From positions 35,030,001-35,094,000 of the forward strand of contig CM114271.1 of NCBI GenBank assembly GCA_050084515.1: 64,000 bases of DNA, given 5' to 3'. The stretch comes from Blasia pusilla. Its lineage: Eukaryota. The position numbers and the translations under genes are program-made. Each line of letters starts with the position of its first letter. The first letter of the stretch is position 1. The notes beneath the pieces are model-generated. The model saw only the letters and a program-made list of their open reading frames with translations, had not been told where the DNA came from and made no database searches. Below are positions 4,701 through 41,865 of the stretch, piece after piece.

Positions 4701-7517
4701 GGCCAAAAACCGAGGGTTCAGGGAGGGTGTCCTTCGTATTCGTATCTGTTTAGCCGGCTGGAATGAAGAAAACTTTGAAAATTGCCGCTCGGGTTTGTAG
4801 AGACCGGAAATGTACCGGTTGTCACGGGAAAACTCCCCGGACCCTGCTCAACAGGTCAAAAGGCCCACCCAAGAACTTCGTCGACTTTCACGAAAGCTGA
4901 TGCAACCAGTGAATTGCGTACGCATATTCTCTTACGAACCTTCCGCCCATGCTCCTAATCTTCTCCACCTTCCATCCAGGCCTAGCAAAGGCTACGATTA
5001 CTACGTACTGCATTGTCTGTTTGACCAGCAGGTGGACTTCAATCCAGCATCAGTTTTACGTACAGACAGCGAGTCTCTGGTCCTGGCCAAACTCTAACGG
5101 AGGAGATGAAACTTTGCAGAGGCTTCGAGATCTCACCACCGCATCATCTCTTGGTCGGAGTGATGGTGACCCAAGTTCTGCCAAAAGTAGGTAGAACAAC
5201 AAAGTCCTGTGGTGTTTTATTCTCTCCTCTCGTTGGTATCTTGCTGGCCTCTTTTGGCGGAAAAAAGTGCCAGCAATACACCAACTATGTCCATAGTAAT
5301 GGGGAAACCACCAGTGACTGCATCGGTCTTTCGAGCTCCATGGAGGCCGACCACCAGTGTCGGACCCGGATGCAACTGTCACCAGTGGTACAAGTTAAAA
5401 GCAGACGTACGGTTCAAAAGCCTTTGTGTGTGTGTGTGTGTACCTGCCTTGGGACTACACAGGTTCTTTAATTCCAGAGTAGCACAAATGGTCTCGCCAT
5501 CCGAACTTCGGGAAAAAAAGGAGCGTACTTCAACTTTCCCTGAAGATGGTCAGACGGTCGTGAACCTGAGAAATCTTTTATCGTCCGAGCCCAGTGCCCG
5601 GGAGAACAGATAGTCAAACTATCGGCGCATCGACCCTCCTTCAGCAGTTCGCTGTGCTGTGCTTCTCTCTCCTTCCTACTACGGCGGCACTTTTGTAGAA
5701 GACCGCATGAAATCCGGAGCAGAAGTGTCGTCGTGCGTCTGCCCCTCAGAATCCTCTCGGACGAGATGAATCTTTGTGGAAGTATCCTACCAACGCATGT
5801 GTCTCCAGTAAAGTTCTAGTCCCCACCAACATTTGCGGAGCCCATCGCTGCGGCACATAACTACCTGAAAATCTAAACGCGGAGGAGATGAAGACTACTG
5901 GCGTGCTTTGCGGGGGAACGTCTTACAACCAGTTGTGGACCTGACAGTCGTCGTCCATGCATTCTCTTCTCTGCATATTTCTTGGGACTGATTGCCATCG
6001 CGCATGCGTCCCGGGTTCAAACGACGAGAAAAATCGTCACCCTGAGCCGCCGGTGGTAAGCCCTGGAGCGATTTCCTCCATGATTGGAAGGCGAACGAGC
6101 GACCAGCTGTGGACCCCTCCCACTCAATCTCTCTTTCCTCCTCTTGACTGAGGCTCTCCACGCGACAGCGGAATGCGAGGCGACTCCCAGAGGTGCGACC
6201 AATACTCCAAGCAACGTACTAGTTGGGGAACGGATGGACCCGAATTACAGTCGGCTGCTGTTTCTAAGAAAGTTCCGGACCTCCGCTACGATTCCACAGC
6301 CTCCGCCAGATTTGGGGGGAATCGACTGATCCAGATTCCAGCAAGGGCATATATGCTATGCTATGCCTTTTAGTCTGTTGTTGAGAGAGGGGCTGAAGTC
6401 ACGAGTCACAAACAAACGGCGGAAGCATTTGTGAAGTCCAATTACTGCTAATCGACCGTCGGACTCCAGAGAACTGTTTTGTTTTCTTACGCCTGTCGCT
6501 CGCAAAACCAACAGAAAGATAGCTGTTGGACGGAGTTGGAGCGCCGCCGTACTGGGGACAGACAGATGTGAGGAGCCCATGTGCCAGTGCCGGTGAACTA
6601 ATCTAATCTGGGCATGCATGATACATCCATCGCTCGCCGGTACGTGGAATTATTAGAAACCGCAACCTCTTCCAGCTCTAATAATCTCTCCCTAATCATG
6701 AATGTCGGCCTCCGTCCGTCCCTCCCGCTCTCTCGCTTCTTTATTTCCCGCTTCCTTTCCCCTCCCATTCTTTCGTTTCTTTCGTTAGTTTCTTTCTGTT
6801 CTCACGCCCTTCTCCCATCCCGCCGCAGCTTTCGCATGCAGTGGACAATGGCATTCTCAGAAATTGACCGTTGGATGCTTCCATCGAACGGTTGCAAAAA
6901 GTGAACAAAAGCGTTGGATTAAGACATATTTATTACTGGAGTCTCTCCCTTAACCAGAGTACGTCCGTGGAGACAGAACTCTGACAGTTGGCGAATCTCA
7001 GGACCTGCCCTGCCCTGCCCTGCCTGCTCGTCCCCCCTATTTATGCCCTGCCCCCCTCCGCTCCCTACACTACAGGCCACGCAAACCTGCGCTGTCCGGT
7101 TATTGCTGAACTGCGTGGGTCAGTTCGTTTCATGGGGCGGAGCTTGTGATCGCAACACTCACAGACACCACGGGGCCGACGTCGGGCGGGGAGAAGTCTG
7201 TCGATTGATGAGGGTGGTGCGGCAAAGGAGGGAAGGAGAGAGAGTGAGTGAAAGAAGGGGGAGGGGGGACGATCCATGCGGGCGGGAAGAGATGACAGGC
7301 GAGGGTGCGAAGGGATTCGAAGTGCATGCGTGAATCACTGCGGGAAATTTGATAGGCGGGTTTCCAAGAGACATCGGGGATTGAGTGGGTGAGGTGTGTG
7401 AGAGAGTCGCGAATTTGAGATTCGCCGAGTCCATGAGTCTGCCCACGGGAATCTAGAGTGCATAGATGTAGCCAGCTGTCTCGTCATCCGCAGCTGAAAG
7501 GCAGGTCACAGAAGAAA

Positions 7518-7529
7518 CCACGTGACGTG
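7518..7529. promoter_or_regulatory. Tandem G-box/ACGT elements (CCACGTGACGTG) upstream of the F-box gene
   Basis: Motif match only, ~125 bp before the ATG. Confidence 0.3.
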
Positions 7530-7652
7530 AGTGATGGAGCATTCCGTAGAGAGTTGAGTCCAGATTTCATTTCCTCTTCCCTCACTCTTCTCGCTGGGCG
7601 CCGGTGACAGCTTTGCGAGGTCTTCCTGGTGCCATCCATTTTTCGTTTCGAT

Positions 7653-8807
7653 ATGGATCATCCGAGAAGCCCTTATCACATGCATGAAGCTGTGTGGAGT
7701 AGATTGCCGGAAGACCTCATGCAGAGAGTCCTTGCATTCTTGCCGATACCCGATCTTCTCAGGTTCCGTTGCGTGTGCAAATCGTGGGACTCGTCACTGT
7801 CTTCCACAAGATCTTTCGACATTTCCAGCGCCGCAGCTGCTTCTCATCTCGAATCTACGCCACAGTCGACGTACCTTCTGTGCTTTATGTCAGTGCTTTC
7901 ATATCCCATCATACACGTTTTTAACGTCTCACTGCGTAAATGGGATGAGCTCTCTTTGAGTTTCTTGCCAAAACTGGATGATGTCTCCATAATCAAGTCC
8001 GCCGGAGGTCTTCTGTACCTCAAAGGTAGAGCGGGACATCGCGGCGACACCGTCTTCCTGACCTGCAACCCGCTGACGAAAACATGGAAAGAACTGCCGT
8101 CCGTTTTCTCAGAGAATGAGAAATATTGGCTGGGAATCTCTAGTCTGACGTCGATGGCTCCGAACTCAGAAGGAGGAGGGTATAGGATTATAGAAGCGGG
8201 ACTCAACGGCTTGACAGACTTGAGGACGAAGATCTATAATTCTGCGACGGAATCGTGGTACTCGTGCGGAAGGTTGCCTTCGACGGTGACGGGATTTGAA
8301 TCTGAGGGAGTCATCGTAAGCAATTGCCTGTATGCTGTCACTTGTTTGCCATACAAAATCCTCAAAATGGAGCTTGATGGGGGCGCGTGGAGTGAATTGT
8401 CTCCTAGCCTCCCCATGTTCGCCGTGTGTCCCCACTTGGTTGAAAGCTTAGGTGACTTGCTCCTGGTGGGAGGATTTGATCCGTGCGGGGAGGAAGGATT
8501 CATCGCAGATTCCACGGAGCTGAAGATTTGGAAGCTGGACTCGTCGAAGATGGAATGGCAGGAGCTTTCTACACTGCCTCAACAACTGCGCGAGAAGTAT
8601 CTGAGCAATCACTGCTTTGATTCGCTGAAATGTGTTTCCCAAGCTTCCTCCATCTACATCGCAAACCTCGATGGATCCCTCGTGCTGGTGTACGACACGC
8701 TGACAAGATCCTGGACTCGGCTTCTCGAATGCCCGTCCCTCACCAATCATCAGTCATGCATAGAGCACATGTTTACCTTTACTCCTTCCCTGCAGTTCGC
8801 GCTCTGA
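7653..8807 (+). CDS. F-box/kelch-repeat (F-box plus beta-propeller) protein, intronless, ~384 aa
   Basis: N-terminal F-box WSRLPEDLMQRVLAFLPIPDLLRFRCVCKSW; plant FBA/kelch motifs SAGGLL, CNPLTKTWKELP, IYNSATESW, LVESLGDLLLVGG, IWKLD..W, VYD....W, C-terminal FTPSL; uninterrupted frame; first ATG at 7653. Confidence 0.93.
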   Translation: MDHPRSPYHMHEAVWSRLPEDLMQRVLAFLPIPDLLRFRCVCKSWDSSLSSTRSFDISSAAAASHLESTPQSTYLLCFMSVLSYPIIHVFNVSLRKWDELSLSFLPKLDDVSIIKSAGGLLYLKGRAGHRGDTVFLTCNPLTKTWKELPSVFSENEKYWLGISSLTSMAPNSEGGGYRIIEAGLNGLTDLRTKIYNSATESWYSCGRLPSTVTGFESEGVIVSNCLYAVTCLPYKILKMELDGGAWSELSPSLPMFAVCPHLVESLGDLLLVGGFDPCGEEGFIADSTELKIWKLDSSKMEWQELSTLPQQLREKYLSNHCFDSLKCVSQASSIYIANLDGSLVLVYDTLTRSWTRLLECPSLTNHQSCIEHMFTFTPSLQFAL

Positions 8808-10513: not shown

Positions 10514-11525
10514 TGTCGCGCCCCTACTCTCCTTGAACGTCAATCTTTAGTGTTGCGGAAGCGTACGTTCAGTAGGTCACGAACTCATTGCCGATCTGCA
10601 CCCAAACACGCACTCTCGTTATCGGGTCTGGGCCAACCAGCGTTCCAACCCACCGAGTCCTCAACTCGACGTCTCATCAAACTCAACCTTCCTTAGTTCC
10701 TAGTTTCCAAAACATGGCAAGTCCTTCAAGACTTGGAACAGACTTCCTGTTTAGTCCAGGGATCTGAAACGGCACTTGCGCGCCTAGCGATCCCACCTGT
10801 TCAACGGTCCTCGGGTGAGTTTCGAACCGAGACCCGAGTAATTGAGTCGCGGGGTGAAATCCAAGAGGAATGTCTAAAATTGCCTCAATGGACTTGGTGC
10901 AGGTTTTCCAACCCAACCCCCAAACTCACATTCCGTTCCATGCCCTTGAGCCGCCACGCGGCGCCCAAAGTGGGGTTTGGGTTCCAAGCACTCTCGGAGA
11001 CCTTCCCCCTTTCCAGTACTTCTGGGGTTCTCCAATAACCCCCCTCCCCCCCCCCCCCTTTGGAAAAAGAGGGTCGGGCCCTTCATTGTGGCCCTCAACC
11101 CGACTCCACTTACAGTCGTTTTCAGATTTTTCTCAGCCGCTGCTTATGCGTTTGCAGCGATCTTTGGTGCGTTTGAACCGGCTCTCCATAAGCTTTCCAA
11201 CTCACCCTTATTTGATCCAAACGCATCTTGGCGCTAAAAGTTATGGCCATAAATACAGTCGGAAACTCTCAAACGCTAGTGGCGTTCCAAATCCGGATCT
11301 TTCCTTTGGCAACCCACTTCCTAGACTCGACTTCTTTCAAGTCTCATTCCGCGTTTGGTCCAGGTTTCTCGGTCGCGACCATAACATCTGAAACGCGACT
11401 CCTCGCTCGCGTCTCGTCTCTTGTCTCCTCTTTGAGACTACTCCAACGCGTAAACCATCTTAGCGTGAGCCCGCTAATGTTCCGATGTTCCGCTTGGCAC
11501 TTGTTTGGTCATGAGGGTCGCGACA
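10514..11525 (-). mobile_element. Solo LTR (1012 bp) related to the chromovirus LTRs at 26128 and 32515
   Basis: TGTCGCG...CGCGACA termini; flanks ttcgt/ctcgt (5-bp TSD with one transition); reverse complement is homologous to the 26128-27157 LTR and nearly identical to 63916-64000. Confidence 0.9.
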
Positions 11526-13339
11526 CTCGTGCTCCTCTCTCCGTGCTCGCTGCGCTCCTCGAGAGCTCATGGCACTCGAGAGCCCAGTGTACTCGAGGGC
11601 TCTTTGCATTGTCTTTTCGCTCTTGGCCCGATCGTGGTCATGCTCTGTGCTCAAGGCGTCTTGAGAAACTGCCCCGAGTGCGCGTGCTTTGTTCGTGTTG
11701 CCCTCATGATGCACTCGAGAAGGAGCTCCGTGTTTGCAGGTGCAATCCTATTGCAATGGCTTCATCAGTAGGGCCCGGATCCAAATCATCACCTTTCTCT
11801 GTGGCCAAGGTGTGGCCAAGCTGGGGCTAATCCGAACGTTTTCGAGCGCCTTCTCTATCCGAGAATGGTAGTCACGTTTCCTTGCTGCCGCAAACATTGA
11901 GAAAGGGTAGATCAGCGCTCTATCATGACCATATGGATTATGTCGTAGAGTATAGTGTGCTAGTAGAGGCCATACCTTATGTAGGGCCGTAGTGTCTAGG
12001 TAGAGATGCGGTTTCATACATGGGGTTGGGGGTTACTCACTTGAGGGTGACTTTTCCAATAGGGCCCGCTCTTAGGTTGGAGGATATAGTATGGAGTGCA
12101 CTCAAAGAACAGCTAGTTCTTTGAGTTGAGCCTGTTGCGTTGGGAGTTAGCCTTGGTAGTGAGTAGAGCTCTTGGCTATGGTGGTTCCCGCAAGCTTCGA
12201 CGTGGATTCTCCCATTATGGAGTGGGTTTGGCTCGATTGTATGGGATTCTATACGTATTTTATGATAGTAGGTCTTTCATGAATTTCACTCAAAGAACTA
12301 GAGTAGATCGATGGTAGCTTCGATTGTGGATCACTAGGATTTGGTTAGGGCTGATTGTGTACTCAGCCGTGGATGTTCGTGGCTTGTGGCCTATGTTGGA
12401 GGCTTCGAGGCAACTCGTGCTAGCTCGGGGCGAGTGGGCGTGAGAGGTGGAGTAAGGAGCAAGGAGCAAGCAAGCTAGCTTGCTTGCTTGGGCGTGAGGC
12501 AGTTTTTGCAGGATTTGTGATTTGAGTGTTGCATAACTGGTCACCTATCTTTGGGCTATTATGCCTGGAAGACGCTTAATTGCTGAGTTCTTAACTATGC
12601 CAATGTACACACCGGTGTAGCTCATTTGGTGATGTTCGGAGATGTGTTAGGCGTTTTATGCATCTCAAGTTTTTGGTTGATGGACTTCTAGCGCGTAGTA
12701 CGGTATAGCCTCTCCATGCAGGTGATATTTTCAGGTGCTGCGAGTCCGACTAGAACGTCATCGACCCGCGGTGGAGTAGCTATTGCGTTAGAATTGTGTG
12801 GTGGGTTCTGTGGATTTAGGGGGTGCCACGTTTGGTGGATTTTGTTACGTTGATTTCCATTTGCGATTGGAGGATTGTCATTGGACTTCCTGTGTTTGGA
12901 TCCCCTCCATCGTTGCTTCTTGCTTGCGCACCCATTATTAGGGTTGACGCTGATTTCCAGAGTAGTGTTACTCCTGTGTGCTAACGGTAGTGAGGCTGGA
13001 GTGATGACCAGTAGACCTTGGGAGGCTTCTTGTGGTGCTGACAGTTTAGGTTGCCTACACCCATAGCTAGTAGAGCTAGAATAGTACAGCGACATTGACG
13101 TCACTTGGTTACTTAGTGGTTGTAATTTGGTGGTGGTGCGGCATCGGCGTTGGTCATCACGGAGCTGTCTGGTGGTCTGGTTGGGGACCGTGGTGCGGAC
13201 AGTGGTGGTTTCACATGGAGTGGATTGAGGTATCGGCTATCTTTTCCACTTCCGACGGTTGATGAAGAGGAGGACGGGGGTGTTCCAAACACCGAGTCTT
13301 CTACGTTGTTATCGAGTGTTGCATCTCCATTGATTTGGG

Positions 13340-14730
13340 ACATGGACGGGATATATGGGGCCATGAAGGCCCCACGACGATACTCGGGTGCAGTGGGCAC
13401 CATTGAGTTGGAGGACTTCATGCAGGAGTTTGATACGTGGTGTGATATGCAGATGTTGCGGAACGCCACGTTGTTTACACCCTTCTTGGCTTGGAAGGGG
13501 TTGTTTTAGCACTTGGCAGGACCACCCATGGATGATTACCATGAGTTTAGGAAGGACCATGTTGCTGAGATTGAGGCGTGGAGACAATATTGGTCTCCAC
13601 GCTATGTGTCTATCATCGAGGTGGTATTGGTAGTAGTGCTCCTACTATGCCAGCCAGCCCGACGTTGATTGTTACGAGTACGATCCGGAGTGGGGGTACC
13701 AGTGGAGGTACCCATGGAGGTACTAGTGGAGGTACTAGTGCCCCACCATCGTTCAGCCCGATTGCAGAGTTCTTAAAGAGGTTGAAGAAGAACTATCAGG
13801 GGGTGAAGACAGAGAAGTTGAGGAGTCTTAAGGAATTTGAGCAAAAGATTGGTGAGAGTCTTCGTGAGGCATACACTCGTATGCGACGCCTGATTTCAAT
13901 TACATATGGAGGTGATCATGTTAGGAAGTTTTTCCCAAGAGGATGGGAGACGGACTTTGGAGGATGGGCCTCATTCGGCCCCAAATTAGTATGATCATTG
14001 CGGGAGACCAGGTCATCCTCGAGAGCCTTGCTTTGATCTTCATCCAGAGTTGAGATCAGGCCGCGGCCGTGGTGGAGCAGCTCCGAGAGGCGGAGGTGGT
14101 AGAGATGGTAGGGAAGGTAGAGGTGGACCAATGGTTGGAGAGCCTACGGTGGCTATCCCTACCACTATGACAGAGTCAGCTATGGCTGCCAGGATTGAGT
14201 AGTTGGAGCAAAAGTTGGCTACTATGGCTGGTATCAAGCATAGATCAGGTTCGGGAGCAGGGGATTCCACCTCTTATGGAGGGGATGATCTCTCTTATAT
14301 GGCGAGTGCAGCACAGGTTGAGGCATCAACTGCAGTTACGAGAGGAGCCACTCGAGCGTTAGAGCCATGTGGTGCTACTGTGGAGTTGGACCCACAGAGG
14401 GGTGAGGCTAGGAGGCAGGCTAGGCTTCCCCAGTCTTTCTTGTTGTGTGAGGTGCTTAGGACTCCATCCATGGTTCCTACGCAGCCTATTGAGCCGACAG
14501 TGGGGACTGATGCATCTACATTGTGTGTAGTAGACACGGATGCAGCATCCAGTGCAGTATTCCGGATGGCAACTTCAGTGTTGGGATCCCCATTGCTTTA
14601 GGAGTTGACTTAGCTCCTGTATTTCAGCTAGCAGCCACATTGTGTGAACGTGGGGGTGTTACTGCTACACGTGTTGAGGTGGATGAGAGTGTTGCGGTGG
14701 AGCGAACCTCTACGTTAGGTGTAGCATTGA
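13340..14730 (+). pseudogene. Gag-like region of copy A
   Basis: FMQEFDTWCDMQ..., LKKNYQGVKTEKLRSLKEFEQKIGESLREAYTRMRRLI (retrotransposon gag-like); degenerate Zn-knuckle near 13990-14050; stops and frameshifts. Confidence 0.65.
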
Positions 14731-14736
14731 GTACTA

Positions 14737-15260
14737 GTGCTACTTGGCAGCAAAGCAAAGGCGAAGATGGATGCATTACGGCCCAAACGACAAACCATTG
14801 ATCGTGAGAGGCTTACACCTGGTGTATGTATGTTGGACAACCAGAGTGGGATATTCCGATTGGTGAGTCCTACAGGACAGGTGTATAGACCAGATAGAGT
14901 CTTGTTAGACTCTGGTGCCCAACCTTTGATGTTGGGAAAGGCGACATGTATTGGTTTGGGTATTTGGAGGTCAAAGCTTGAGCCTTGCCCATTCCAGATT
15001 CAAACATCACTTGGAGGAGCCAATGATAGGTCTCAATTCATGACACGGGAGAATTTCTCTGTACAATTGAGACCAGATCATGCGACTGATAGCTCCCGGT
15101 TGGGAGTACCTACAGTGGTCACATCAGCCGAGTCGTATGATGTACTAGTTGGAGGATCAGTATTGTACCCGATGGGTTTTCAGATGGATTACTAGACTAA
15201 GACATCGTCTTATAGACCTGGTTGGCAGTCCGGGGATGGACGTATGAGCCAAGCTCCTGT
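14737..15260 (+). pseudogene. Retroviral-type aspartic protease of copy A
   Basis: RVLLDSGAQPLMLG active-site motif; YDVLVGG C-terminal motif. Confidence 0.8.
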
Positions 15261-15619
15261 GAGATTTATTTAAAGGGCCCGACGCGGAGGGTCGTCCCCA
15301 ACGGTGTTAGCATCTATGGCTGGTTTTAGTGGAGTAGTCACTTGGCCAGGAGACTTTTTGGAGGGTAATGTTTATGCTATGGATTCTCCTATGCATGAGG
15401 AGGTAGAGGAGGTCCCTAGTTTTGCAGCAGTGGCATCCTCATCGTTGGATGTGCCACTTTGGAGTTCAGGCGGTGCACTACGGTAGGAGGCTGATCGCCT
15501 AGTGCAGAAGGCTTGGTGTGAGGCTATTATACCTCACGAGGAAGAGGAGGCCCCACGGCGGACTCCTACTTCTGGTCCAGTTGGGTTATTCCCTTTGGAT
15601 ACTACACCCATTGTATGGC

Positions 15620-16605
15620 AGTATCCGCCGGAGGACATTTGTGTGTTAGATCTCTTTGGTGGGATTAGCACTGGTTTGGCTGCAGTGTTGCAGGCCGGTA
15701 TTCCTATGCGGAGATACGTGTATGTGGAGCGAGATGAGACGGCCCAGAGAGTCTCATCCCGACATATTGGTCAGTTGATGCGGAGATATCCTGAGTTGTT
15801 GCCGCCATCAGCTATTTGTGGGTACCAGCATGCTTTGCCGTCACACATTGTATTGTTGGGGGCGCAGGACCTTAAGAGGGTTGGTCCTGTGGATTTGGTG
15901 ATTGCTGGATGGCCATGTCAGGGTCATACACATGCTGGTCGTGTTGAGGGATTACACGACCCTAGGTCTCGATTGTTTTGGGAGATGTTACGGGTGTTAC
16001 GACATCTTCAGGTTCACCTGGCACGTGCTCTAGCTTACATTCTGGAGAATGTTCCATTGTTGGATGACACTCAGACCCGGATGAGGGCGAGTGTTCATGA
16101 GGTGCGGTCTTGGATTGGACCAGCGGTGTTGTTGGATGCAGCGCGAGTTGGCTCGCGTGCACATCGTCCACGCTTGTGGTGGACAAACTTGGTACCTAGG
16201 GAGGTTCTACGTTGAGCATATGATGCAGTGCACCGGGATCCTTGCCTTACTGTGGATAGAATCTTGGATACTGGGCGACTTTCTCAGGTAGTGAGGGTTA
16301 TTGATCGGTCACCCATGGCAGTAGTGAACTGTGTGGGCGAGCCTAGGATGGCACTACCCACATTTTTCAGTTTTCCCTCGTCACATGCCTACAGGGAAGG
16401 TGGTCCCGAGCTTGTATGGGATTCTCATGTGCGACAGTTGGTGGAGCCTAACGCTGATGAGAGAGAGCATGCGATGGGATTTGCTACTGGTGTGACAGCG
16501 GTTGCTTCCATTTCTGAGGCTTCACGACGTCATTTTTTGGGTCATACCATGGACCTGAATTGTTTGACTTGGATTTTGAGTCTTGGTATGGCCGAGCAGC
16601 GTTGA
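15620..16605 (+). pseudogene. C5 DNA cytosine methyltransferase domain (DNMT3-like) within pol of copy A
   Basis: Motif I VLDLFGGISTG (~15643), IV AGWPCQG (~15904), VI ILENV (~16040), VIII AHRPRLWWTN (~16160), IX/X EPNADEREHAMGF...LGHTMD; one in-frame TGA at 16213; same frame as the protease. Confidence 0.93.
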
Positions 16606-16869
16606 CTTCAGACTATGTCTGTGGGTCTTCCACCCCTTGTGATGAGCTCGATGGCTACCGAGACGGTAGAGGCATCGGGTGGGGGTGAGGAGAGTAGTAT
16701 TTTGCATCCTTGGAGTAAATGGGATGTAATGGCTGGGCATGTGGAGTTGGTTGCTCATGCTGGGGGAGGAGTTATTTGCTCAGATCTTTGGTGTAGCTAA
16801 GGGTGTATCATCTTGTGAGGGGTTGCGTAGCGACCAATGGCATAAATCCTCTCCCTCTTGTGTGCCAGT

Positions 16870-18310
16870 GGAGGAGACTTGGGAGCCATTACTTGGGCCC
16901 AAGCTTACAGGAGGTGAGAAACAACGCTTGACACAGTTCCTACGTGCTTATAGGATTTTTTTTGCCTTTAGCATGAAGAAGTTGGGTGCTTTGGTTGGAC
17001 CCGGTATACGGATTGATTTGGCTAGTGATACGACAATCTTCCGTCGTCCCTACCGATATAGTGATATGGAGAGGGACCTGATTCAGAGTAGGACGTTGGA
17101 CCTTTTAGAGGCTGGATTAGTCGAGTTTTCGCATGGAGAGTATGCATTAGCCACTGTCATGCCTGCTAAAAAGGATGTGCATGGCAACTACACGGATAAG
17201 AGGATGTGTGGAGATTACCGTCCTATCAATCGGCAGACCAAGGCTGATAGGTATGCCATGCCTACACCTGAGGAGATCTTTGATGTGGTGGGACACGAAA
17301 ATATTTTCAATACTTTGGATCTTTGGGCAGGATACCATCAGTTGCCGATTGGAGAGAATGACAAGGCCAAGACAGCATTTTGAGGTGTCAACTCTCATGG
17401 CAAGGATTGTTTGTACCAGTGGAAATTCTTACCCTTTGGGTTGAAGAATGCACCTGCCGAGTTTCAGAGAGCGATGGACAGGATCCTAGCAGGGTTGGAT
17501 TTTGTTCGATGTTACATTGATGATATCTTGGTGTTCAATAACATGGTGGAGGAGCATCAGATACATTTGCAGATTGTGTTTCAGCGGTTGAAAACTCATG
17601 GTCTACGTTTGCATCCAGGAAAGTGTAAGTTCTTCCATGAGGATGTTGAGTACTTGGGTCATGTGATCTATCCAAGTGATTTGGGAGTTCAGCAAGCAAA
17701 GGTGGAGGCTATTGCACTTATTCCTTGTCCTGTAGATATGAGTAGAGTTTGGGCATTCATGGGATTGGCGAACTACTATCGGAGGTATGTGAAGGGATTT
17801 AGTGCTATGGCAAAGCCTTTGAACCAATTGTTGAAATCAGATCAGTAGTGGCACTGGGGAGATGATAAGGAGAGAGCTTTGGTGGAGCTCAAGGTCCAGT
17901 TGGTGGCGGCGCCTATCTTGAGGAGACCTATCATAGGGCGCCCATTTCAGTTTCACATTGATTGGAGTAGGTTGGGACTTGGAGCGGTGTTGACACAACA
18001 TGATGATGAGCACATGGAGTTTGTGGTGGCCTATGCAAGTCGTTTGAATAATGCAGCGGAGTCGCGCTACAGTTCATATGAGGGAGAGTGCTTGGCAGTA
18101 ATGTGGGTTGTGGCACACTTTAGGTGTTACTTGTTTGGCACACAATTTACCCTTGTTACTGATCACCAACGGCTCAAGTGGTTGATGGAGTGTGACAAGC
18201 TTACAAGGAAGCTTGCACGGTGGGCTCTTATCTTACAGGAGTATGACTTCTAGGTGGTACATAGACCTAGAGTTGCCAACCTTGATGCTGATGGGTTGAG
18301 TAGGAATCCA
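16870..18310 (+). pseudogene. Reverse transcriptase and RNase H of copy A
   Basis: RMCGDYRPIN, LDLWAGYHQ, LPFGLKNAP, CYIDDILV, FMGLANYYRR; RNase H IDWSRLGLGAVL, EGECLAV, TDHQ, ARWAL..QEYDF, ADGLSR; several premature stops. Confidence 0.95.
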
Positions 18311-18699
18311 TGTACTAGCCAAGAGGATGCAATTGGGGCTAGATGGCATGGCGAGGTTGATGAGGAGATGGTGCCAGGTTGGCATGCATCCGCCTTTTTA
18401 TGTTGGTTAGGGGTGGACTCTAGTATGGAGGACCACATGACATCTTACTCTAGTCAGAGGGTAGATGGCCAGCCTTCAGATCCTAAGGTTGGAGATGGTG
18501 ATACGGATCAGTGTGATATTCATGATGATGCGTTGGTGTTGGAGTTCCTACGGACCAGTAGGGTGCCAGACATAGTGAGTGCCAAAGAGCGAGAGCGTGT
18601 TCTTCAACGTGCTAAGAGGTATCGATTGGAGGGAACACATATTCTCCATGTGTGGGAGGATGGTAGAGTACGAGTAGTACCGTATTTGGCTCAGAGAGA

Positions 18700-19790
18700 G
18701 CGCATTGTGCGACATGCCCGTTGGGATATTTTGGGGTAAAGCGTACATATAGCTTACTCCTTGGTTAATATTGGTGGCGTGGCATGCATACTCAGGTGCA
18801 GCAGTTGGTGTCACGTTGTATGGTTTGTGACCGGGTGAGGGCATCATTCAATGCCCCTACACCATAGTTACACCCCTTGCCTATTATGGGATTGGGTTAC
18901 CGTTGGAGTGTGGACTTTGCGGGACCGTTACCGTTGACTATACAACATCATCGATATGTGTTGGTGATGGTGGAGCACTTCTCCAAGTGGATTGAGTTGG
19001 TGGCATTACCTGACAAGGCAAGTGAGGGAACGGCATATGCGTTTCTTGATAGAGTGCTTAGTCATTTTGGTGCACCAACTGAAGTGCTGACCGACCAGGG
19101 TACAGAGTTTCAGGACTTGTGTGACAAGGCGTTGATTGATCATCGGACCACGTCTCGAGATCATCCAGAGGCAGATGGTTTGGCTGAGCGTGTGGTTTAG
19201 ACGGTGAAGAGGGCATTGCGCAAGTATGGCCTACAAAAGGGGCATCTTGGAGACTAGGATATTCAGTCGCCATGGTTAGTCATGGGGTATAGGTTCAGTC
19301 GCCAAGCATCCTTGGCTTCCTTCTCACCTTATTTTCTGCTATACGGCCGAGATTCACACTTGCCAGTAGCAATTTGTTGGGAGTCTAGTGAGGTGGTGAA
19401 CCTTGATGACCCAGAGATGTGGATGAGAGTGTGTTCTTAGCGGGCAGAGCTCTTTCGGAGAGTTATGCCAACAGCCTTTGAGAATCTTGCCATTGCTCAA
19501 CACAAGGATACATTGTGGTATGCAACCATTCGGGATGGAGGTTATCAACCATCGATTCGTAGATTCCATGTGGGGAATATATCTATTTGCAGCAGATTGC
19601 ACCGACAACGTTGGATGTGACGACAGGCCGCACTATTTTACGAGTGCGCGAGGTGTTAACTTCTGGAGTTCTCATGTTGGAGGGTCGTGATGGAGTTGTT
19701 TGGAAGGACCATGTGCGTAATTGTGCGCCATACCATCTTCCAAATGTGGATGGTACTGTTGACCCAAGCTTAGCCATGATACGTGCTAGC
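18700..19790 (+). pseudogene. DDE integrase of copy A
   Basis: Zn-binding H/CxxC remnants; WSVDFAGPLP, VEHFSKW, VLTDQGTEF, HPEADGLAERVV, FSPYFLLYGR. Confidence 0.93.
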
Positions 19791-19796
19791 TTGATG

Positions 19797-19946
19797 TGCA
19801 TGTTGTGTGGGTCTGCTGGTAACGCAACCCGTATGTTGGTGTGTGATCGGTGTTCTAGGGGTTGGCACATGATGTGTTTGACTCCACGTATAGATGTTGT
19901 TCCTCTTGGAAGGTAGGTTTGTCCTCGATGTACTAAGGAGAGGTAG
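19797..19946 (+). pseudogene. PHD finger (C4HC3) at the integrase C-terminus of copy A
   Basis: CMLCGS...MLVCDRCSRGWHMMCLTP...VP.GR*VCPRC, with TAG where PHD fingers have the conserved Trp. Confidence 0.9.
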
Positions 19947-20691
19947 ATGACTTGATCTTTGCATTATATGGATTACAGATAGGCGACTAACGATGGGGCA
20001 ACCTAGCACCCGGCCTTCTGATTCGTGCACCCAAGAAGGTGTATAGCATGTAGTAGATGTATAGGGCTACTTGGGAGTTAGAGGGACCTAACCACCAGTA
20101 AGGGGGGCGAGTTGTGTACACTTGTGTTTGTGGATGCTCTCATCTATGTTATGTATGTATGTGAGTATGGTATGTCAGCGATGTATGCTGTATGACGATG
20201 TGGATTCGCACCACAACTGTCATGACTATACGGATTATGTCGTAGAGTATAGTGTGCTAGTAGAGGCCATACCTTATGTAGGGCCGTAGTGTCTAGGTAG
20301 AGATGCGGTTTCATACATAGGGTTGGGGGTTAATCCGTTGAGGGTGACTTTTCCATTGGGGCCCCTTCTTAGGTTGGAGGATATAGTGTGGAGTGCACTC
20401 AAAGAACAGTTAGTTCTTTGAGTTGAGCCTATTGCGTTGGGAGTTAGCCTTGGTAGTGAGTAGAGCTCTTGGCTATGGTGGTTCCCTGAAGCTTCGACTT
20501 GGATTCTCCCATCGTGGAGTGGGTTTGGCTCGATTGTATGTGATTCTATACGTGTTTTATGATAGTAGGTCTTTCACGGATTTCAATTGTGGTACACTTG
20601 TGTTTGTGGATGCTCTCGTCTATGTTATGTATGTTTGTGAGTATGGTATGTCAGCGATGTATGTTGTATGACGATGTGGATTTGCACGACA

Positions 20692-22966
20692 GCCATCACC
20701 AATCAAATGAGATGGAGGACGAGCACCCAATGCACCACTCCTTACATGCATCGATCAATTGGAGCAAAGGATTGTTTCCATGATGATGATGTAGCTAAAT
20801 GGAGGCCCAGAATCTGAGAGTAGCTAGTGTGGCCCTAGCCTCTACATCTTACCACGATGCTGGTGAGGATTCTGCGAGCATGGGATTTATGTGTAGTGCA
20901 TCTCAGGTGGAGGTTGCTGCGGTGGTAACTCGGATGCTACGAGAGTAATCGAGCCATCGAGAGGTGGGGTTGAGATTGACCCACAAGAGGAGATCGATGG
21001 GCAGCAGGCCAAGGTTCCCAAGTCGTTCATGTTGTTGGAGGCACTTCATACATTGTCGATAAAGCCTTGACGGCCGATTTTGCCCACGGGTCAGAAAAAT
21101 GCATCAATGTCACGAGGAGTTGGAGAGACAACTCCTATGCCGGCTCAAGTGGAGCTAATGTCGACCACATTGTTGGATTTGGCCACTAGGGTGAGCCACA
21201 CTGTTATATTCCGTCGTGGAGTTGGCGACGTTGATAGTTGGATCAGCAGAAGTGTTCTGGTTGGCCGCCATGTTGTATGAGCATGGAGAGGTGACTGCCT
21301 CTCGTTCAGAGGTAGTTGAGGAGGTGGTGGACTTGCCCTTGGAGCAGGTGCTTGAGAAGTCCCCACTAAGTCATAGCATGCGGCGGTGGCGAAGTTGGTA
21401 GATATGCGAGCTAGGCCAACGATAAAGCAATCCATGATCACACAAAATGTGGTATTGTTGGATAACCAAGCTCGAGTGTTTCGCTTGGTTAGTCCCACAT
21501 GTACGGTGTACCACCCGCAGCATGTCCAAGCATTGTCCCTTTCAGATACAGACCTCTATTGGGGGCGTATCACCCATGCATTACATGACTCGACAGGAGT
21601 TGGTGGTTAAACTCCAGCCAGAGGACGAGTCGGATAGTGCAATGGTGTGCACTCGAGTGATTACGACATCGGCGGAGTCGTATGACGTGTTAGTATGGAT
21701 TACGGTATTGTATCCCATTGGGTTCATTCTGGATTTTTGGGAGAAGACGGTTTCTTATCGGCTAGGGTGGCGATCAGGTGAAGGACATGTGAGTTATCTA
21801 CCGGTGTTGTTTGTAGGGGGTAGTGGTGATCGACCACGTGAAGATATCGTGACCACGTTGGCCACATTCATAGGTAGTGTTGGCTGATCAAGAGGGTTTA
21901 AGGAAAGGAGCACACATGCCAAGGACATTCCTGTAGTAGATAGTCCCACGGAGAGACATGCCATAGTGGGTGTCTCTTCCCCTGGTCCGTAGGTTCATTA
22001 TTATTTTTGGGGACAAGCGTTGAGATGCATGGAGTGTAGACGAGCTCGTGAGACATGCGTGGAGCCATGTCTATGTTTGGAGGAGGATACGAGAGTGTTA
22101 GATCTCTTTGGAGGGATCAACAAGATGGATTGCTGCAGTTTGGTAGTGTTGCAAGGATGATGGCACCAATGGTGCTAGATGTGTATATATAGGATAGGAG
22201 ATCATGTCAAGGACATATGTGTGTCCTATCTAGGGTAAGGGGGATCCAACTGCCAGCTAGGGGGGCGGTTGTGGGATCCCTTTGTTTATCTGTGAGTATA
22301 TTTTGTTTATGTGTGGATCTACTCGTATGTTGGGGAAGATCGGTGTTGTGTTGTGTGTAGATGTGACCAGCGATGTGGGTTGTGTAGCGATGTGTATGCG
22401 CACAACAGTTGTCACATCTTAGCTTGACATAGGTAGAGTTCTATCGCGTCCATCGCATAGAGAGTTAGTGGACTGTTCAGGTGTAGCTTAGTCCCGAGAT
22501 GTCGGATGAGGTTGGCGACAGGTCTATTGTGTCGAGAACGTCGTTTAAGGCTATTTCCCTATTTTGGTTTTAGTCTGTCAAGTGACTCGTTGACCGATTC
22601 AATGATCACCCGGTAACATGTGCACACAGGTTACTGTTCGTAGGGCTATTTTTGGGGGAAGAGCCTTTTGGCTCTTTCCAAGGATATAAGAGTGAGGAAG
22701 ATGGCTTTCCCAAGACATCTTTGTCATGTTGAGCCTTGGGAGTGTCTCTCTTGCGTAGACGTGTGTGGGTGTGTAGTAGTTAGGATGCTAGCGTCCGGAG
22801 GGTGGATGTAGTTCAATTTTTTGATGTAGATTCATGAGTGGAGTTGTGGGGTCCCTTTGTATATGCGTGAGTATATTTTGCTTATATATGGATCTACCCG
22901 TATGTTGGAGAAGATTGGTGTTGTGTGGTGTGTAGATGTGACCAGCAATGTGCCTTTCACACGACA
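20692..22966 (+). mobile_element. Internally deleted, divergent member (copy C) of the DNMT-Gypsy family
   Basis: gag/PR homology (VLLDNQARVFRLVSP, CPFQIQTS, SAESYDVLV); DNMT motif I remnant RVLDLFGGIN at ~22092-22121; then PPT, Y' (22269-22407), X' (22410-22843), Y' (22844-22966, ending CACGACA). Confidence 0.8.
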
Positions 22967-23960
22967 CATTGCCTATTCTCCTTGTAGGGAATAAGTACAA
23001 TCCGTTCGTTGGGAGGCCACATGTTTGTCCTCGTCCAAGGTTTGTGTCAATTTTTTGGATGTATCCAAATTTGCATATACAAGACAAGGGTCGATAGATA
23101 GCAATGAACAATCTCTATGAAGAAAGTACACGCATTCCTTCTTGTATTGTTTTAGGAAATTAAAGAAGAAATCTTATGAATGATCGAGGATGAAATTTGA
23201 TTTTTTGGGGAATTAGCTTATGAGATCTAATTTAACTGGAGCTCTTTCATAGGGAATAAAGTATGCCTTGGGAGAAGAAAAAAAAGTTAAATTTCTCCAA
23301 CATCAATAACCGCTAATGATCAATCATGAAAATGCCTCTAATTTATGATGCATTGTGTTTCTTCTCATCTTGTCTAAGCTCACTTCCAAAATTGGCAGAC
23401 CCGTGGGAAAAATTGCTTCATTTAAATCAAACCCAAAGGATCTGGCAAGGAAAAACATTAACAGGTTTGGCGGCTGTGGCCATCTTTCTCACTTTCTTGG
23501 CATGATGGAAAATTGGCGCCAAGGTTTTCCATACGCATAACCTTCTCTTCCCTTCCATGAGGGAAAAGGTCAAGAATGCACATAGACATGTCCATATCTG
23601 AGGACTTATGTCTATCCCTATGACAGATATGTTCGTACGGGGAGTGGGTACTCGCAAACTGCCTCGCCCGTAACATAGACCCGGGCTTGGTAGCCCACCC
23701 TAGGCTCACCCTCTCATAGGCCAATGAAGGCTGGTGCAGGCCATGTGTAGACTACACCAGGATTTATAGCCCGTACACCCGGTCGGTCCTGCCTCGCCAC
23801 GCCCATACCCATTCCCGCACCTTGAGCCCATGCGGGGTAGGAAAGGTCCATGGTTGCATGTGGACAAAGTCCGTGTCCATAGTCATGTCCATGTCCGTGG
23901 ACTTATGACCGTCCTTTGGAAGGACTGGTTCGTATGGGCCCCACCTTTCCCTTCTTTCTC

Positions 23961-26900
23961 ATGAAACAGACCTGGAAAGAAGGATTCGTGAAGGATACAT
24001 GAAGGATGAGCAAGCGAGGGAGTACCTTGGGAAGTTAAAGCGGGGCGAGAAGGTGGCCAATCTGAGTTTGAGACACGGCTTGCTAAGGTTTAAGCAGAGC
24101 AGGATCTATGTAGGCCAAGGCAAGCTACGGACCAAGGTGTTTGTGGAATGTCATGATGGACCTTTGGCGGGACACAAAGGGGAGAAATCCACTCTTGCTG
24201 TTTTGTCTAAGAGGTTCTTCTGGCCCAACATGAAGGAAGATGTTGCTCAATATGTGAAAACATGCGTGACCTGCCAGGCGAACCGCGTGTCTTATGCGAA
24301 GAAACAAGGTTTACTTCATCCTTTGCCAATCCCGGAGGGACCCTTGCAAAGCATTAGCATGGATTTCATTACGAGTCTTCCAGAATCTGAGGGATACAAC
24401 GCTATACTTGTGATAGTTGATCGGTTTAGCAAGTTGGGGAGGTTTGTGCCGACGAGAGAGTTTGCGACGGCCTACGCGACTTCCCGACTATTCCTGGATG
24501 GTTGGTGGCGTGTGCACGGATTGCCTAGGAGCATTGTGTCCGATCGGGATCCGAAGTTTACCAGTGCCTTTTGGAAACATCTATTCATGAGGTTCCGGAC
24601 CAAACTCAGCTTTAGTACGGCCTTCCATCCTCAAACGGATGGGCAAACGGAAAAAGTAAACTCGGTCGTAAACCAATACTTACGGAATTACGTGAGTGCG
24701 GACCAAAAAGATTGGGCCAAGTGGTTAAGTATGGCTGAGTATTGTTACAACTCGACTAAGCATTCTGCAACCGGAGAATCTCCGTTTCTTCTGGCGTATC
24801 AAAGAGAACCAGAAGGGCCTCTTGACTTAGCTCTTTCGAAGGGCAATACATCGACACACACTCGTCAAGCAACGGCGGAATGTTTGTTAGTGGAAATGCA
24901 GGAACGACAAGAGCGAGCGAGAGAAAGTCTCGCCAAAGCTCAACTAAGGTACGTAAAGCATGCTAACAAAAGTCGGCGCCATGTGAGTTTCCAAGTTGGG
25001 GAACAAGTGTGGTTGAGTGTTAAGAATCTCACTCTTCCGAAAGAATTGTCTGCAAAATTGTCAGCCAAGTATGCTGGACCGTATGTGATCAAGGCAAGGC
25101 CGTTTGAGGATGTATACACGTTGGAGCTGCCAAACGAGTTCAAGATTCACCCGACTTTCCATGTGTCATTATTGAAGAAGTATCTTCAAGACAATGTGCG
25201 CCCGGAGCTTAAGGAGGATGTTGAGACCACAACCGGTCATCGAAATGAGGAACCAGAGTTTGAGGTTGAGACTATTGCGCTGCCCAGACGTAGGGCCACC
25301 AAGTACGAGTACTTGGTCAAGTGGAAAGGCTATCATGTGAAAGAGGCGACTTGGATTGCGGAGGCGGATCTAGAACATGGGCAAGAAGCATTGCGTGACT
25401 TCAGATGGATGCAAGAAAGGCACGTGCGTTAGTACATGGTGAAGCAATGGACATAACTTGTGACCGGAAAGCTTGGGCCGATAACCCGTTGTAACTAGAA
25501 AGGTTTAGTTGTTGCAATAAAGAAGACATGGATTTGGAGATTCGATGCTTGTATTATAATTTTGAGTTTGGTTTGTGCAAGGCAATGAGTAGTTCTTCAT
25601 ATGCTTAGGATGTAAGTCAAGGAGACCAAACAATGAGTATTTGAGGTGAGAGCTTGTACTCAGATAAGGCATCTAGATCAGGACCAAGTGTTGAAGTACT
25701 AGCATTTGGGCTCGCCCTAACGTCGGCGGGGCAGATGAGTCTGTCTTGGGGTTTGTGGTGATCTCATTCATGTTTCATGACTGAACTTAGTGACGCGCCT
25801 AGGTGGAATACAGGTGACCCAAAAGTAGTACGAGTTGGCTAGGTAGACAGGCGGTTGTTTACAAATAGTGAGTGAAGTGTTAGGTTGCAGACTTAGTGAG
25901 CTTATTTTGATAGTTAGATTAGTTTGGCAGAACTAGTCTAGGCTCATCAGAAAGCAGAAGCTAATAAGTCTAAGTGCTGCAAGCGACAAACCTAAGACTT
26001 AAGCCAAAAAGAGGAATTGCGGGTTAGCTACCAGAACGCGATTCTGTGTTAAGGGGTCGGCTTCCCTAACTTAACATCAATAAGGTTTTGCGTTGATGAG
26101 GACATCAACCTTCTAAGGAGGGGTGAGTGTCGCGACCCTCATAACCAAACAACACCAAATACGCGCCAAGCTTAAACATCGAACTCAAAGGAACTCACGC
26201 CGCGAGGTTTGCGCTTTGAGAGGCGTTTGGAAGAGTCTCTTGAAAAGTCTAAGAGACGAAACGTGGAACAGAGTTGTGCGTTTCATGCGTTAGTGGTCGC
26301 GACCAGGAAACCTAGACCAAACGCGAACCGAGACTTGAGATGAGTTGAGTCTTGGAGGTTGGTTGCCAAAGAGGTGAGAACCAGTTTGGAACACGGCTAG
26401 CGTTTGGGAGAATCTGACTGTGTTTAGGACCATAACGTTGAGCTCCGAGATGCGTTCGGGACAAGTAAGGACGCGTTGGAAAGCTGATCTTGAGACGCTT
26501 CCAACGCACCAAAGATCTCAGCAAACGCATAAGTACAGACTGAGATATTGGCCGAAAACGATTCAGAGAGCAATCGGGTTGAGGGCCAATTGGAGGGGCC
26601 CGGGTGTCTTTCCCTAAATGTAGGGGGCCCCCGGAGATCCCCAGAAGTACTAGTAAGGGGAGTACCTTCTCTAAGATGTCTCCGGAAACGAAACCCCACT
26701 TTGGGCGCCAAACGGCGTTTGAGGCACGGATGAAACGGGAGTTTGGCGCTGAAACCCAAACCCAAACCTGATCCAAGGGAGTGGACTTTGCACGCCACAC
26801 TTGGATTCCAACCCGAGATTCACTTCGATGCGAGTCTTGGTGAGGAACTCATTGGATGTTCATCGGACAGTTGGAACCGCTAGCGCGAAACGCCGTTGCA

Positions 26901-27157
26901 GGTGTTCCTCGAACCGACTGAGAAGTCTGTCCCAAGTCTTTCGAGACTTGCCCGTGTTGGAAACCGCGAAACTAGGAAGGTTGAGCTTGAAGAGAGAGTC
27001 CGAGACGAGAACTCGGAAAGTAATCCCGCTGATTGATCCAAGACCCGACTAACCGAAGTGCGTGTTTGGATGTAGATCAGCGTTGAGAGCGTGACCTACT
27101 GAACGCACGCTTCCGCAACAAACAAGATTAACGTTCAAGAAGAGTAGGCGCACGACA
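23961..27157 (+). mobile_element. 5'-truncated chromovirus unit (INT-chromodomain, 3' UTR, PPT, LTR) in tandem with the next element
   Basis: 23961-26127 is a near-identical copy of 30354-32514; PPT aaggaggggtgag directly before LTR 26128-27157. Confidence 0.9.
23999..25432 (+). CDS. Gypsy integrase with GPY/F motif and chromodomain (fragment of pol)
   Basis: H-H/CxxC Zn finger, ISMDFITSLP, VDRFSK, IVSDRD, HPQTDGQTE, KYAGPY, IHPTFHVSLLK, YLVKWKGY...TW. Confidence 0.92.
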   Translation: MKDEQAREYLGKLKRGEKVANLSLRHGLLRFKQSRIYVGQGKLRTKVFVECHDGPLAGHKGEKSTLAVLSKRFFWPNMKEDVAQYVKTCVTCQANRVSYAKKQGLLHPLPIPEGPLQSISMDFITSLPESEGYNAILVIVDRFSKLGRFVPTREFATAYATSRLFLDGWWRVHGLPRSIVSDRDPKFTSAFWKHLFMRFRTKLSFSTAFHPQTDGQTEKVNSVVNQYLRNYVSADQKDWAKWLSMAEYCYNSTKHSATGESPFLLAYQREPEGPLDLALSKGNTSTHTRQATAECLLVEMQERQERARESLAKAQLRYVKHANKSRRHVSFQVGEQVWLSVKNLTLPKELSAKLSAKYAGPYVIKARPFEDVYTLELPNEFKIHPTFHVSLLKKYLQDNVRPELKEDVETTTGHRNEEPEFEVETIALPRRRATKYEYLVKWKGYHVKEATWIAEADLEHGQEALRDFRWMQERHVR

Positions 27158-41851: not shown

Positions 41852-41865
41852 TACCGCATATACAT

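Follow-up and report, generated by a model that had tools for sequence, protein, structure and literature searches.

The locus considered here raises the question of how a Gypsy retrotransposon that carries a DDE integrase can be bounded by split direct repeats instead of two long terminal repeats (LTRs), and by which route such an element may enter the genome. It is located in a stretch of 64,000 nucleotides (nt) of Blasia pusilla DNA (assembly GCA_050084515.1, contig CM114271.1, positions 35,030,001 to 35,094,000 of the forward strand), which was analysed as a whole and is referred to as the window. The element, named element 1, occupies positions 11921-20691 of the window, and its terminal parts are built of two repeated segments, X and Y, which correspond to A and B of an A1...B1-A2-B2 arrangement and are placed as follows:

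11921-12288 (+): X1 (= A1), the 5' terminal repeat, starting with TATCATG (TGTCATG in X2) and ending with ...ATTTCA
20112-20215 (+): Y1 (= B1), starting with TTGTG and ending with CACCACA
20216-20217 (+): AC spacer between the Y1 end and the X2 start; a relative at 22260-22966 has GT in the equivalent place
20218-20585 (+): X2 (= A2)
20586 (+): one additional A behind X2 (ending with ..TTTCA) and before Y2 (starting with TTGTGG..), so that the X2-Y2 joint reads CAATTG
20587-20691 (+): Y2 (= B2), the 3' terminal repeat, ending with CACGACA; the terminus of a metagenomic relative, L001, is identical in kind

The initial annotation had described these four pieces, the inverted outer ends that meet again inside the element, and a polypurine tract (PPT) that precedes Y and not X, and all of this was found in the sequence as described. 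Both pairs of repeats are about 94% identical. X1 and X2 shared 93.99% identity over 366 nt by BLAST and 93.8% in a gap-free global alignment of 368 nt (Kimura two-parameter distance, K2P, 0.066), and Y1 and Y2 shared 94.3% over 105 columns by BLAST and 95.2% globally (104 aligned bases, 1 gap column, K2P 0.050). The similar divergence of the two pairs fits a single event in which all four pieces were made. No further copies of X or Y were detected by BLAST in the window. X starts with T(A/G)TCATG and Y ends with CAC(C/G)ACA; the outer ends form an inverted repeat at 6 of 7 positions (TGTCATG against CACGACA), and the same ends abut at the internal Y1-X2 junction as CACCACA-AC-TGTCATG. Two full, identical LTRs are not the outermost parts of the element, as its left end consists of X only and its right end of Y-X-Y, which is the arrangement of split direct repeats.

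The positions of the signals for reverse transcription are central to the interpretation of this layout. The following were recognised in element 1:

20100-20111 (+): PPT AAGGGGGGCGAG, directly upstream of Y1 and not of X2, conserved in two relatives
12083-12090 (+): TATA-like GATATAGT inside X, a promoter predicted from the sequence, about 30 nt upstream of 12116
12100-12126 (+): hairpin ACTCAAAGAAC-AGCTA-GTTCTTTGAGT, present also in X2 at 20397-20423
12116-12126 (+): candidate self-primer, the right arm of the hairpin, GTTCTTTGAGT
12288-12298 (+): candidate primer-binding site ACTCAAAGAAC, which abuts the X1 end and is the exact complement of 12116-12126

In all three elements of the family compared in the window (3/3), namely element 1 and a second and a third relative listed further below, the boundary between the PPT and B reads GGGGGGCG(A/G) followed by TTG. 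The third relative carries the same TATA-like motif at 22683-22689, in the matching place. The folding of the hairpin was significant (z scores of -3.2 and -4.2), and none of 200 shuffled sequences folded as well. The 12-mer CACTCAAAGAAC occurred 5 times with at most one mismatch, always in X1, in X2 or directly after X1, while 0.37 occurrences are expected by chance and 5 were reached by 0 of 100 shuffles. Moreover, in the minimum-energy folds of both 12082-12330 and 12116-12330, positions 12115-12126 are paired with 12288-12299. The number of tRNA genes found in the window was zero. Self-priming has been predicted for moss and club-moss Tcn1 chromoviruses, as stated in the part of the study of Neumann et al. 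(2019, PMC6317226) that deals with these elements. Since the PPT abuts Y1 and the candidate primer site abuts X1, reverse transcription should produce an LTR of the composition Y-X. Both signals appear to fit such a Y-X LTR and not the chromosomal ends X...Y (TGTC...GACA). The ends defined by reverse transcription are not conserved as TG...CA; in the third relative A ends with ...GTGGAG, without CA, and therefore the tips made by reverse transcription do not look like integrase substrates.

The coding content of element 1 was determined from stop-to-stop open reading frames (ORFs), of which 20 pieces, in two sets of 10, were scanned against Pfam, and gives the following order of domains:

13126-14202 (+): gag region with stops and frame changes; Retrotrans_gag E 0.0057, under the Pfam cut-off
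14731-15195 (+): aspartic protease region, a decayed piece with 0 Pfam families, recognised by an LLDSGA motif in the translation only
15487-16605 (+): C5 cytosine DNA methyltransferase of Dnmt3 type; PF00145 E 4.5e-10, in-frame stop at 16213-16215
16730-17848 (+): reverse transcriptase; RVT_1 E 3.5e-24
17849-18253 (+): RNase H; RT_RNaseH E 3.4e-34
18254-19200 (+): integrase; DDE core at 18868-19200, rve E 8.7e-14
19563-19916 (+): C-terminal PHD finger; PF00628 E 1.2e-07

The order protease, reverse transcriptase, RNase H and integrase is that of Ty3/Gypsy pol, the protease being recognised by its DSG motif only, and the methyltransferase domain is placed in pol between the protease and the reverse transcriptase. 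The nearest solved structures were DNMT3A/3B/3C for the methyltransferase piece (E about 3e-10), which carries only the label 'DNA methylase' in the Protein Atlas, and the Ty3 Gag-Pol chain 7q5b for the integrase core (E 4.7e-05). The Dnmt3-type domain together with the PHD finger identifies the family as Gypsy-DNMT3. Element 1 is thus very likely an old and no longer active member of the Gypsy-DNMT3 family of streptophytes, which belongs to the Ty3/Gypsy LTR retrotransposons. Several neighbouring ORF pieces are parted by in-frame stops alone, many positions have T or A where the contigs of other copies have C or G, and the observed/expected ratio of CpG is 0.59 in element 1 and 0.75 in the window. 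Its strands are strongly asymmetric in composition (2686 G and 1613 C, 2540 T and 1932 A). The asymmetry, seen at 11921-34000 (+) and 44000-52000 (-), changes with the direction in which the retroelements lie, the GC skew being about +0.2 at 12-34 kb and about -0.2 at 44-50 kb, the part in which a relative occupies the opposite strand.

The initial annotation had also stated that the element encodes a DDE integrase and no tyrosine recombinase. This holds for the 20 ORF pieces scanned, none of which matched PF00589; the second set of 10, taken from both strands, matched no Pfam family at E up to 0.1, and element 1 has no unassigned coding space large enough for a tyrosine recombinase. An Rfam search over 11500-23100 returned no matches. 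The interpretation given in the annotation can be kept in part: the anatomy and the assignment to DDE-bearing Gypsy elements stand, whereas the layout had already appeared in print and the DNMT3 domain and the PHD finger had been overlooked.

This coding content bears on the possibility that the element replicates by the scheme of DIRS, PAT and Ngaro elements. In that case the transcript would lack the outer parts of X1 and Y2, and the Y1-X2 region would act as the template or splint by which the ends are rebuilt and joined; the Y-X site would be a copy of the circle junction, and the X2-Y2 joint would have no special origin. The layout of the repeats is indeed of DIRS type, as described in the figure legends of de Mendoza et al. 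(2018, PMC5890265), and of all non-coding sequence shared by element 1 and the third relative, the Y1-X2 region is conserved best. However, besides the missing tyrosine recombinase in the scanned ORF pieces, the conserved PPT before Y and the candidate primer site after X1 are signals of ordinary two-jump LTR synthesis and predict a Y-X LTR, and the scheme leaves unexplained why X2-Y2 looks like a blunt joint of exactly the two tips predicted in this way. We consider it distinctly unlikely.

Whether the layout is a property of the family can be judged from its other members. The relatives found in the window are composed of the following parts:

20805-22139 (+): third relative, internal part (end of gag, protease, DNMT motif I), internally deleted and without its 5' part
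22260-22966 (+): third relative, 3' end, PPT-B1-GT-A2-B2, followed by an unrelated flank
22260-22268 (+): PPT AGGGGGGCGG of the third relative
22269-22407 (+): B1 of the third relative, TTGTGGG...GCGCACAACA
22408-22409 (+): GT spacer of the third relative, between B1 and A2
22410-22843 (+): A2 of the third relative, starting with TGTCACATC... and ending with ...GTGGAG
22844-22966 (+): B2 of the third relative, ending with ...CACACGACA (CACGACA)
44230-49985 (-): second relative, 71% identical to element 1 at the nucleotide level, with no detectable 5' parts and with its 3' repeats broken off
44358-44347 (-): PPT and B-type start of the second relative, GGGGGGCGA followed by TTGGAGAT

The third relative is much more diverged from element 1: its internal part matched 14347-15270 with 44-50% amino acid identity (tblastx; 47-50% for 20936-21815), and 22082-22139 matched 15630-15686 with 78% identity over 59 nt (blastn). 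Its B1 and B2 are 89% identical over 110 nt by blastn (86% over 123 aligned nt). In both elements A is started by TGTCA, and CAC(N)ACA ends B in Y1, in Y2, in L001 and in B1 and B2 of the third relative. Approximately 50 nt around the B end and the A start are about 75% identical between the two elements, as counted manually on the alignment, and the rest of A aligns poorly. The pattern of the Y-X junction was found in the window at two real sites and in three matches with one mismatch; the latter were judged to be due to chance, the sequence context having been checked for one of them. Homology between the second relative and element 1 is lost near 49985, and this 5' end yielded no terminal repeat. 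One more fragment of the family, at 62967-63899 (+), corresponds to the integrase region of element 1 with 71% identity and runs off the end of the window.

Outside the window, a metagenome scan with the DNMT piece as the query yielded 12 loci, of which L001-L005 are members of the family; L006-L012, with DNMT matches of 33-45%, were set aside, and L008 looks bacterial. L001 is the sole one of the five that reaches the end of the element, and none has a 5' end. It is 74-79% identical to the internal region, its Y-type segment is 82% identical to Y2, and the element ends with ...GCACGACA, after which unrelated AT-rich DNA begins. Because L001 lacks the stretch matching 19814-20585, it documents the right terminus alone and not the full layout. 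About 1.4 kb downstream of the element end, at 7299-8030, L001 contains a tandem array of 46-nt units. No relatives were found in prokaryote genome contigs, and none in viral contigs with a single protein query; two viral-contig matches of 31% obtained with an alignment query were taken as unrelated methylases.

Among protein candidates of similar length, 296 of 1834 passed E 0.001 as relatives of the DNMT piece, as did 62 of 4559 longer ones. The named relatives among the matches listed are Marchantia polymorpha (about 58-71%), Calypogeia fissa, Sphagnum species and Closterium (39-40%), and no Klebsormidium sequence is among the matches listed (the best 120 of the 296 of similar length and all 62 longer ones). 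By these relatives alone, the host would probably be a bryophyte. P0177, one of the longer relatives, unites reverse transcriptase, RNase H, methylase, integrase and PHD domains, and P0174 and P0182 have methylase, integrase and PHD domains; PF00665 and PF00628 occur together in 3 of the 62, and PF00589 in 0 of the 62. These counts are relevant to a further explanation, according to which the element would be mobilised in trans by a tyrosine recombinase supplied from elsewhere, for instance by resident DIRS-like elements, its own integrase being irrelevant to the ends. The sole point in its favour is the likeness of the layout to that of tyrosine-recombinase elements. The TGTC...GACA inverted ends are typical of DDE substrates, the fusion of integrase and PHD finger has been kept in the three longer relatives just named (one of them also with reverse transcriptase and RNase H), and the part of the window that was scanned contains no tyrosine recombinase, which makes mobilisation in trans highly improbable.

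The A1...B1-A2-B2 layout (X...Y-X-Y) is therefore a trait of the family and not an accident of element 1, as follows from the 3' layout of the third relative, the terminus of L001, the limits of the DNA read depth given below and the description in PMC5890265. The initial annotation had named ordinary X+Y LTRs in most copies, with element 1 as a one-off rearrangement, as the finding that would overturn its reading; as far as this was testable, the third relative, L001 and the published description speak otherwise. A one-off rearrangement or assembly error of an ordinary LTR element would account for the unrelated flanks of element 1 and for its lack of a visible target-site duplication (TSD). 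It does not agree with the third relative, which has the same 3' layout at only 44-50% amino acid identity, with the shared terminus of L001 and the same layout in the published family, with the equal divergence of the X and Y pairs, or with contigs from other runs that hold both the X-to-Y and the X-to-primer-site junctions. This explanation is extremely improbable.

Sequencing runs were used to follow the family beyond single copies. The DNA runs are labelled X1 and X2, which are distinct from the repeats of the same names, and the RNA runs X22 and X23, chosen by species label; depth was taken in coarse bins of 321 nt. In DNA run X1 the word depth rose from 767 (bin 11500-11820) to 26790 (bin 11821-12141) at the left end and fell from 85333 (bin 20488-20808) to 2967 (bin 20809-21100) at the right end; the corresponding values in DNA run X2 were 39.6 and 3147, and 5817 and 407. 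These steps, which mark the limits of the family, fall in the bins containing the beginning of repeat X1 and the terminus of Y2. In one contig of DNA run X1 (depth 27.4) the X-Y joint contains AG instead of A, which weakly suggests that every cycle forms this joint afresh.

Transcripts of the family are present in the host RNA runs, in sense orientation and across the whole element. RNA reads of another subfamily agree with element 1 as far as 20107/20110, behind which they change to the B-type start found in the second relative; loose ends at these two positions numbered 28+43 reads in X22 and 50+110 in X23. Such an abrupt change of sequence right behind the PPT fits the expected look of a U3 start. 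RNA depth was 8.6 and 12.8 in bin 20488-20808 against 68 and 89 in the preceding bin, which fits transcripts that end before or in Y2, with the divergence of subfamilies as a confounding factor. Three joints were also seen in the RNA: 18476-19466, with 989 nt skipped and 9 other letters between (16 and 31 reads, both runs), 13428-19548, with 6119 nt skipped (6 and 6 reads), and 19999-20074, with about 74 nt skipped just before the PPT (23 and 17 reads). The skipped stretches lack GT..AG ends and therefore look like expressed deletion derivatives and not like introns.

The signals for reverse transcription and the chromosomal ends would thus be out of register by one Y. The observations comprise the layout and its repeated occurrence, the domains encoded, and the places of the PPT and of the complementary site; from them we infer the transcription start, self-priming, end-joining and internal cleavage that make up the following scheme. 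Tentatively, we favour integration from an end-joined intermediate of the 2-LTR type, which is cut by the integrase at the internal Y-X site. The linear cDNA would have ordinary Y-X LTRs, YX-internal-YX, and the chromosomal form X-internal-Y-X-Y would be its circular permutation. In the first step the ends of the cDNA would be joined, the X end to the Y start, giving the CA-A-TTG joint seen at X2-Y2; the joined molecule could be a 2-LTR circle or the product of an end-to-end template jump. In the second step the integrase would ignore the cDNA tips and cut the abutted ...GACA-NN-TGTC... that lies within what was the 5' LTR; both strands would be cut 3' of CA, which would leave a linear molecule with recessed CA-OH ends. 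In the third step the resulting X-internal-Y-X-Y molecule would be inserted. Cutting at the other Y-X site would yield X-Y-X-internal-Y, with no downstream repeat for the first strand transfer and no progeny. As only the permutation observed keeps promoter, primer site, PPT and downstream Y-X in order, it can be argued that this one alone leaves descendants. The X-Y joint would not be transcribed and would be remade in each cycle, while the Y-X spacer would be inherited. The initial annotation had suggested a circular intermediate opened at the Y-X junction, and the data fit this route and would make it more precise. With still more reserve than for element 1 itself, the scheme may be extended to the whole Gypsy-DNMT3 lineage of streptophyte algae and bryophytes, which would then integrate obligatorily from end-joined, 2-LTR-circle-like cDNA cut 104-139 bp inside the LTR.

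The same anatomy would result if no closed circle was formed. In this version the reverse transcriptase would jump from the end of the right LTR to the start of the left LTR or to a second cDNA, so that in a linear molecule X would be followed by one additional Y or by more, and the integrase would trim both sides endonucleolytically at the internal TGTC/GACA. The A that is additional at the joint, replaced by AG in one contig, is the expected trace of a non-templated addition before the jump, and the two equivalent sites of a circle are avoided. However, the integrase would have to remove more than 100 nt at the left end, a process for which we know of no precedent, and no data separate the linear from the circular version. 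A template jump of this kind is rather unlikely.

Several observations weigh against an end-joined intermediate as the source of integration. A single copy with both ends was available for examination. A 2-LTR circle has two identical Y-X sites, and the choice of the one in the 5' LTR rests on the argument of progeny viability; the hint of a variable joint rests on one short contig. The long-range fold that would pair the primer with its site is modest (z about -2), being equalled by 8 and 5 of 200 shuffles, and in the third relative the hairpin is not significant alone (z -0.34) and the primer site is missing. The sole cluster of RNA 5' ends, at 12082 (28 molecules, in X22 only of the two RNA runs), lies 34 nt upstream of the start predicted for the self-primer, 12116. 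Since most reads are 90-95% alike and thus come from other copies or subfamilies, clipping may create this cluster; position 12082 could equally be the true start, and the primer would then not be the first 11 nt. The search for TSDs outside X1 and Y2, proposed in the initial annotation, gave no clean match: none is recognisable between the left flank, ...GCGCTC, and the right flank, GCCATC..., and the flanks belong to different repeats. With no visible TSD and with unlike flanks, insertion of element 1 by the integrase can only be presumed.

When read in reverse orientation, the left flank, 10514-11528, resembles the LTR-like segments 26125-27157 and 32512-33546; the right flank is formed by the third relative. 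A later exchange between copies would explain the unlike flanks, if such an exchange is assumed. The flanks were also compared with decayed parts of the element, and these candidates were rejected: the local alignment of the left flank as a decayed Y was matched by 86 and 78 of 1000 shuffles and the semi-global one by 614-984 of 1000 shuffles, the right flank as a decayed X was matched locally by 149 and 111 of 1000 shuffles and semi-globally by 473-687 of 1000 real segments, and the left flank had no similarity to the 5' part expected for the third relative.

If the permuted register reflects real replication, integrase-bearing retroelements would have a second way of entering the genome, and a link would be made between LTR elements, 2-LTR circles and the split repeats of DIRS type. 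The split repeats would then be a solution reached convergently with the tyrosine-recombinase elements, and a natural case of the circle-junction route, long abandoned, would be at hand; the older circle-precursor model of retroviral integration is reportedly that of Panganiban and Temin. Because the family is transcribed in host RNA and is abundant in the model liverwort Marchantia, the question of the mechanism is testable; element 1 is itself a good candidate, and one open to testing, for integration through end-joined molecules. The layout also has consequences for annotation. Programs that search for LTRs and pair X1 with X2 would set the 3' end 106 bp short of its true position and report the absence of a PPT, pairing of Y1 with Y2 would give a false element of 476 bp, and the insertion ages and target-site statistics of the family would be wrong unless the layout is modelled.

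The neighbourhood of element 1 in the window contains other repeats. Matches to the integrase of chromoviruses, with zinc-binding, rve, Tf2-type SH3 and chromodomain parts, were found at 23909-25432 and 30351-32886; 23958-26500 and 30351-32886 are 97% identical and represent two young copies or a duplicated block beside the Gypsy-DNMT elements. A repeat of about 1 kb, with about 70% identity, is present at 10514-11528, 26125-27157 and 32512-33546, the copy left of element 1 being inverted; the latter two, 6.4 kb apart, are probably LTRs of a chromovirus. The 86-nt piece 11440-11525 recurs at the window end, 63916-64000, with 97.7% identity. An uninterrupted frame of 399 amino acids with F-box and Kelch repeats, at 7608-8807 (+), has a CpG observed/expected ratio of 0.91; it probably represents a host gene and lies about 3 kb away from the cluster of transposons. 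An AT-rich block (GC 0.32-0.38), 34000-42000, separates the two transposon clusters, and 55108-55748 is a degenerate tandem array whose copies are about 67-135 nt apart and 67-73% alike.

Comparison with known systems shows which part of these results is new. In KnitGypsy-Dnmt3 of Klebsormidium nitens, a Dnmt3 domain forms part of the pol of a Gypsy element (de Mendoza et al., 2018, PMC5890265); in the legend of Fig. 4c its repeats are said to be 'as in a DIRS retrotransposon' and its domains 'typical of Gypsy', and in the legend of Fig. 1e the DIRS layout is defined as A-coding region-B-A-B. The passages of that paper that describe the element say nothing on the register of PPT and primer site, on end motifs or on a mechanism. 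Among open-access papers and preprints it was the only one found to describe such repeats in a Gypsy element, PMC11982613 and 10.1101/363937 having no bearing on the matter, and the name 'streptophytes (Gypsy-DNMT3)' is used in a 2026 preprint (10.64898/2026.05.21.726589). The family and its DIRS-like layout are therefore already in print, unexplained there, whereas the register of PPT and primer site relative to the ends, the conserved TGTC...GACA, the joint-like X-Y and a mechanism were not found in these papers and preprints. Element 1 shares with KnitGypsy-Dnmt3 the Dnmt3-type methyltransferase inside Gypsy pol and the A-coding-B-A-B repeats. It differs in the host, as its nearest named proteins come from liverworts and mosses (Marchantia, about 70%), and the two are likened by description and not by sequence. 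Element 1 is thus a new, bryophyte-like member of a known oddity.

With DIRS, Ngaro and PAT elements it has in common the split direct repeats and an internal junction that repeats the joined ends; instead of a tyrosine recombinase it has a protease, a DDE integrase, a reverse transcriptase and RNase H of Gypsy type, a PPT and TGTC...GACA ends. Tf1/Sushi and the plant Tcn1 elements resemble it in having a site of 11-12 nt after the 5' repeat that complements a segment within this repeat, situated about 30 nt behind a TATA-like motif. However, they possess ordinary LTRs, element 1 has a PHD finger in place of the chromodomain, and the start site is here a predicted one. In the transposon circles of IS3 and IS911, abutted inverted repeats with a short spacer are the substrate of a DDE enzyme, which offers an analogy only, as these are bacterial DNA transposons without reverse transcription. 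Cleavage of 2-LTR circle junctions by integrase has been described for prototype foamy virus and human immunodeficiency virus type 1 (PMC1905944, PMC1180852, PMC4372172). There, as proposed for element 1, a DDE integrase cuts abutted LTR ends in a joined molecule and so produces ends competent for integration. The retroviral cut is made at the end-to-end joint, whereas in the Gypsy-DNMT3 family the proposed cut would be made 104-139 bp inside the LTR, and the joint would survive within the inserted copy.

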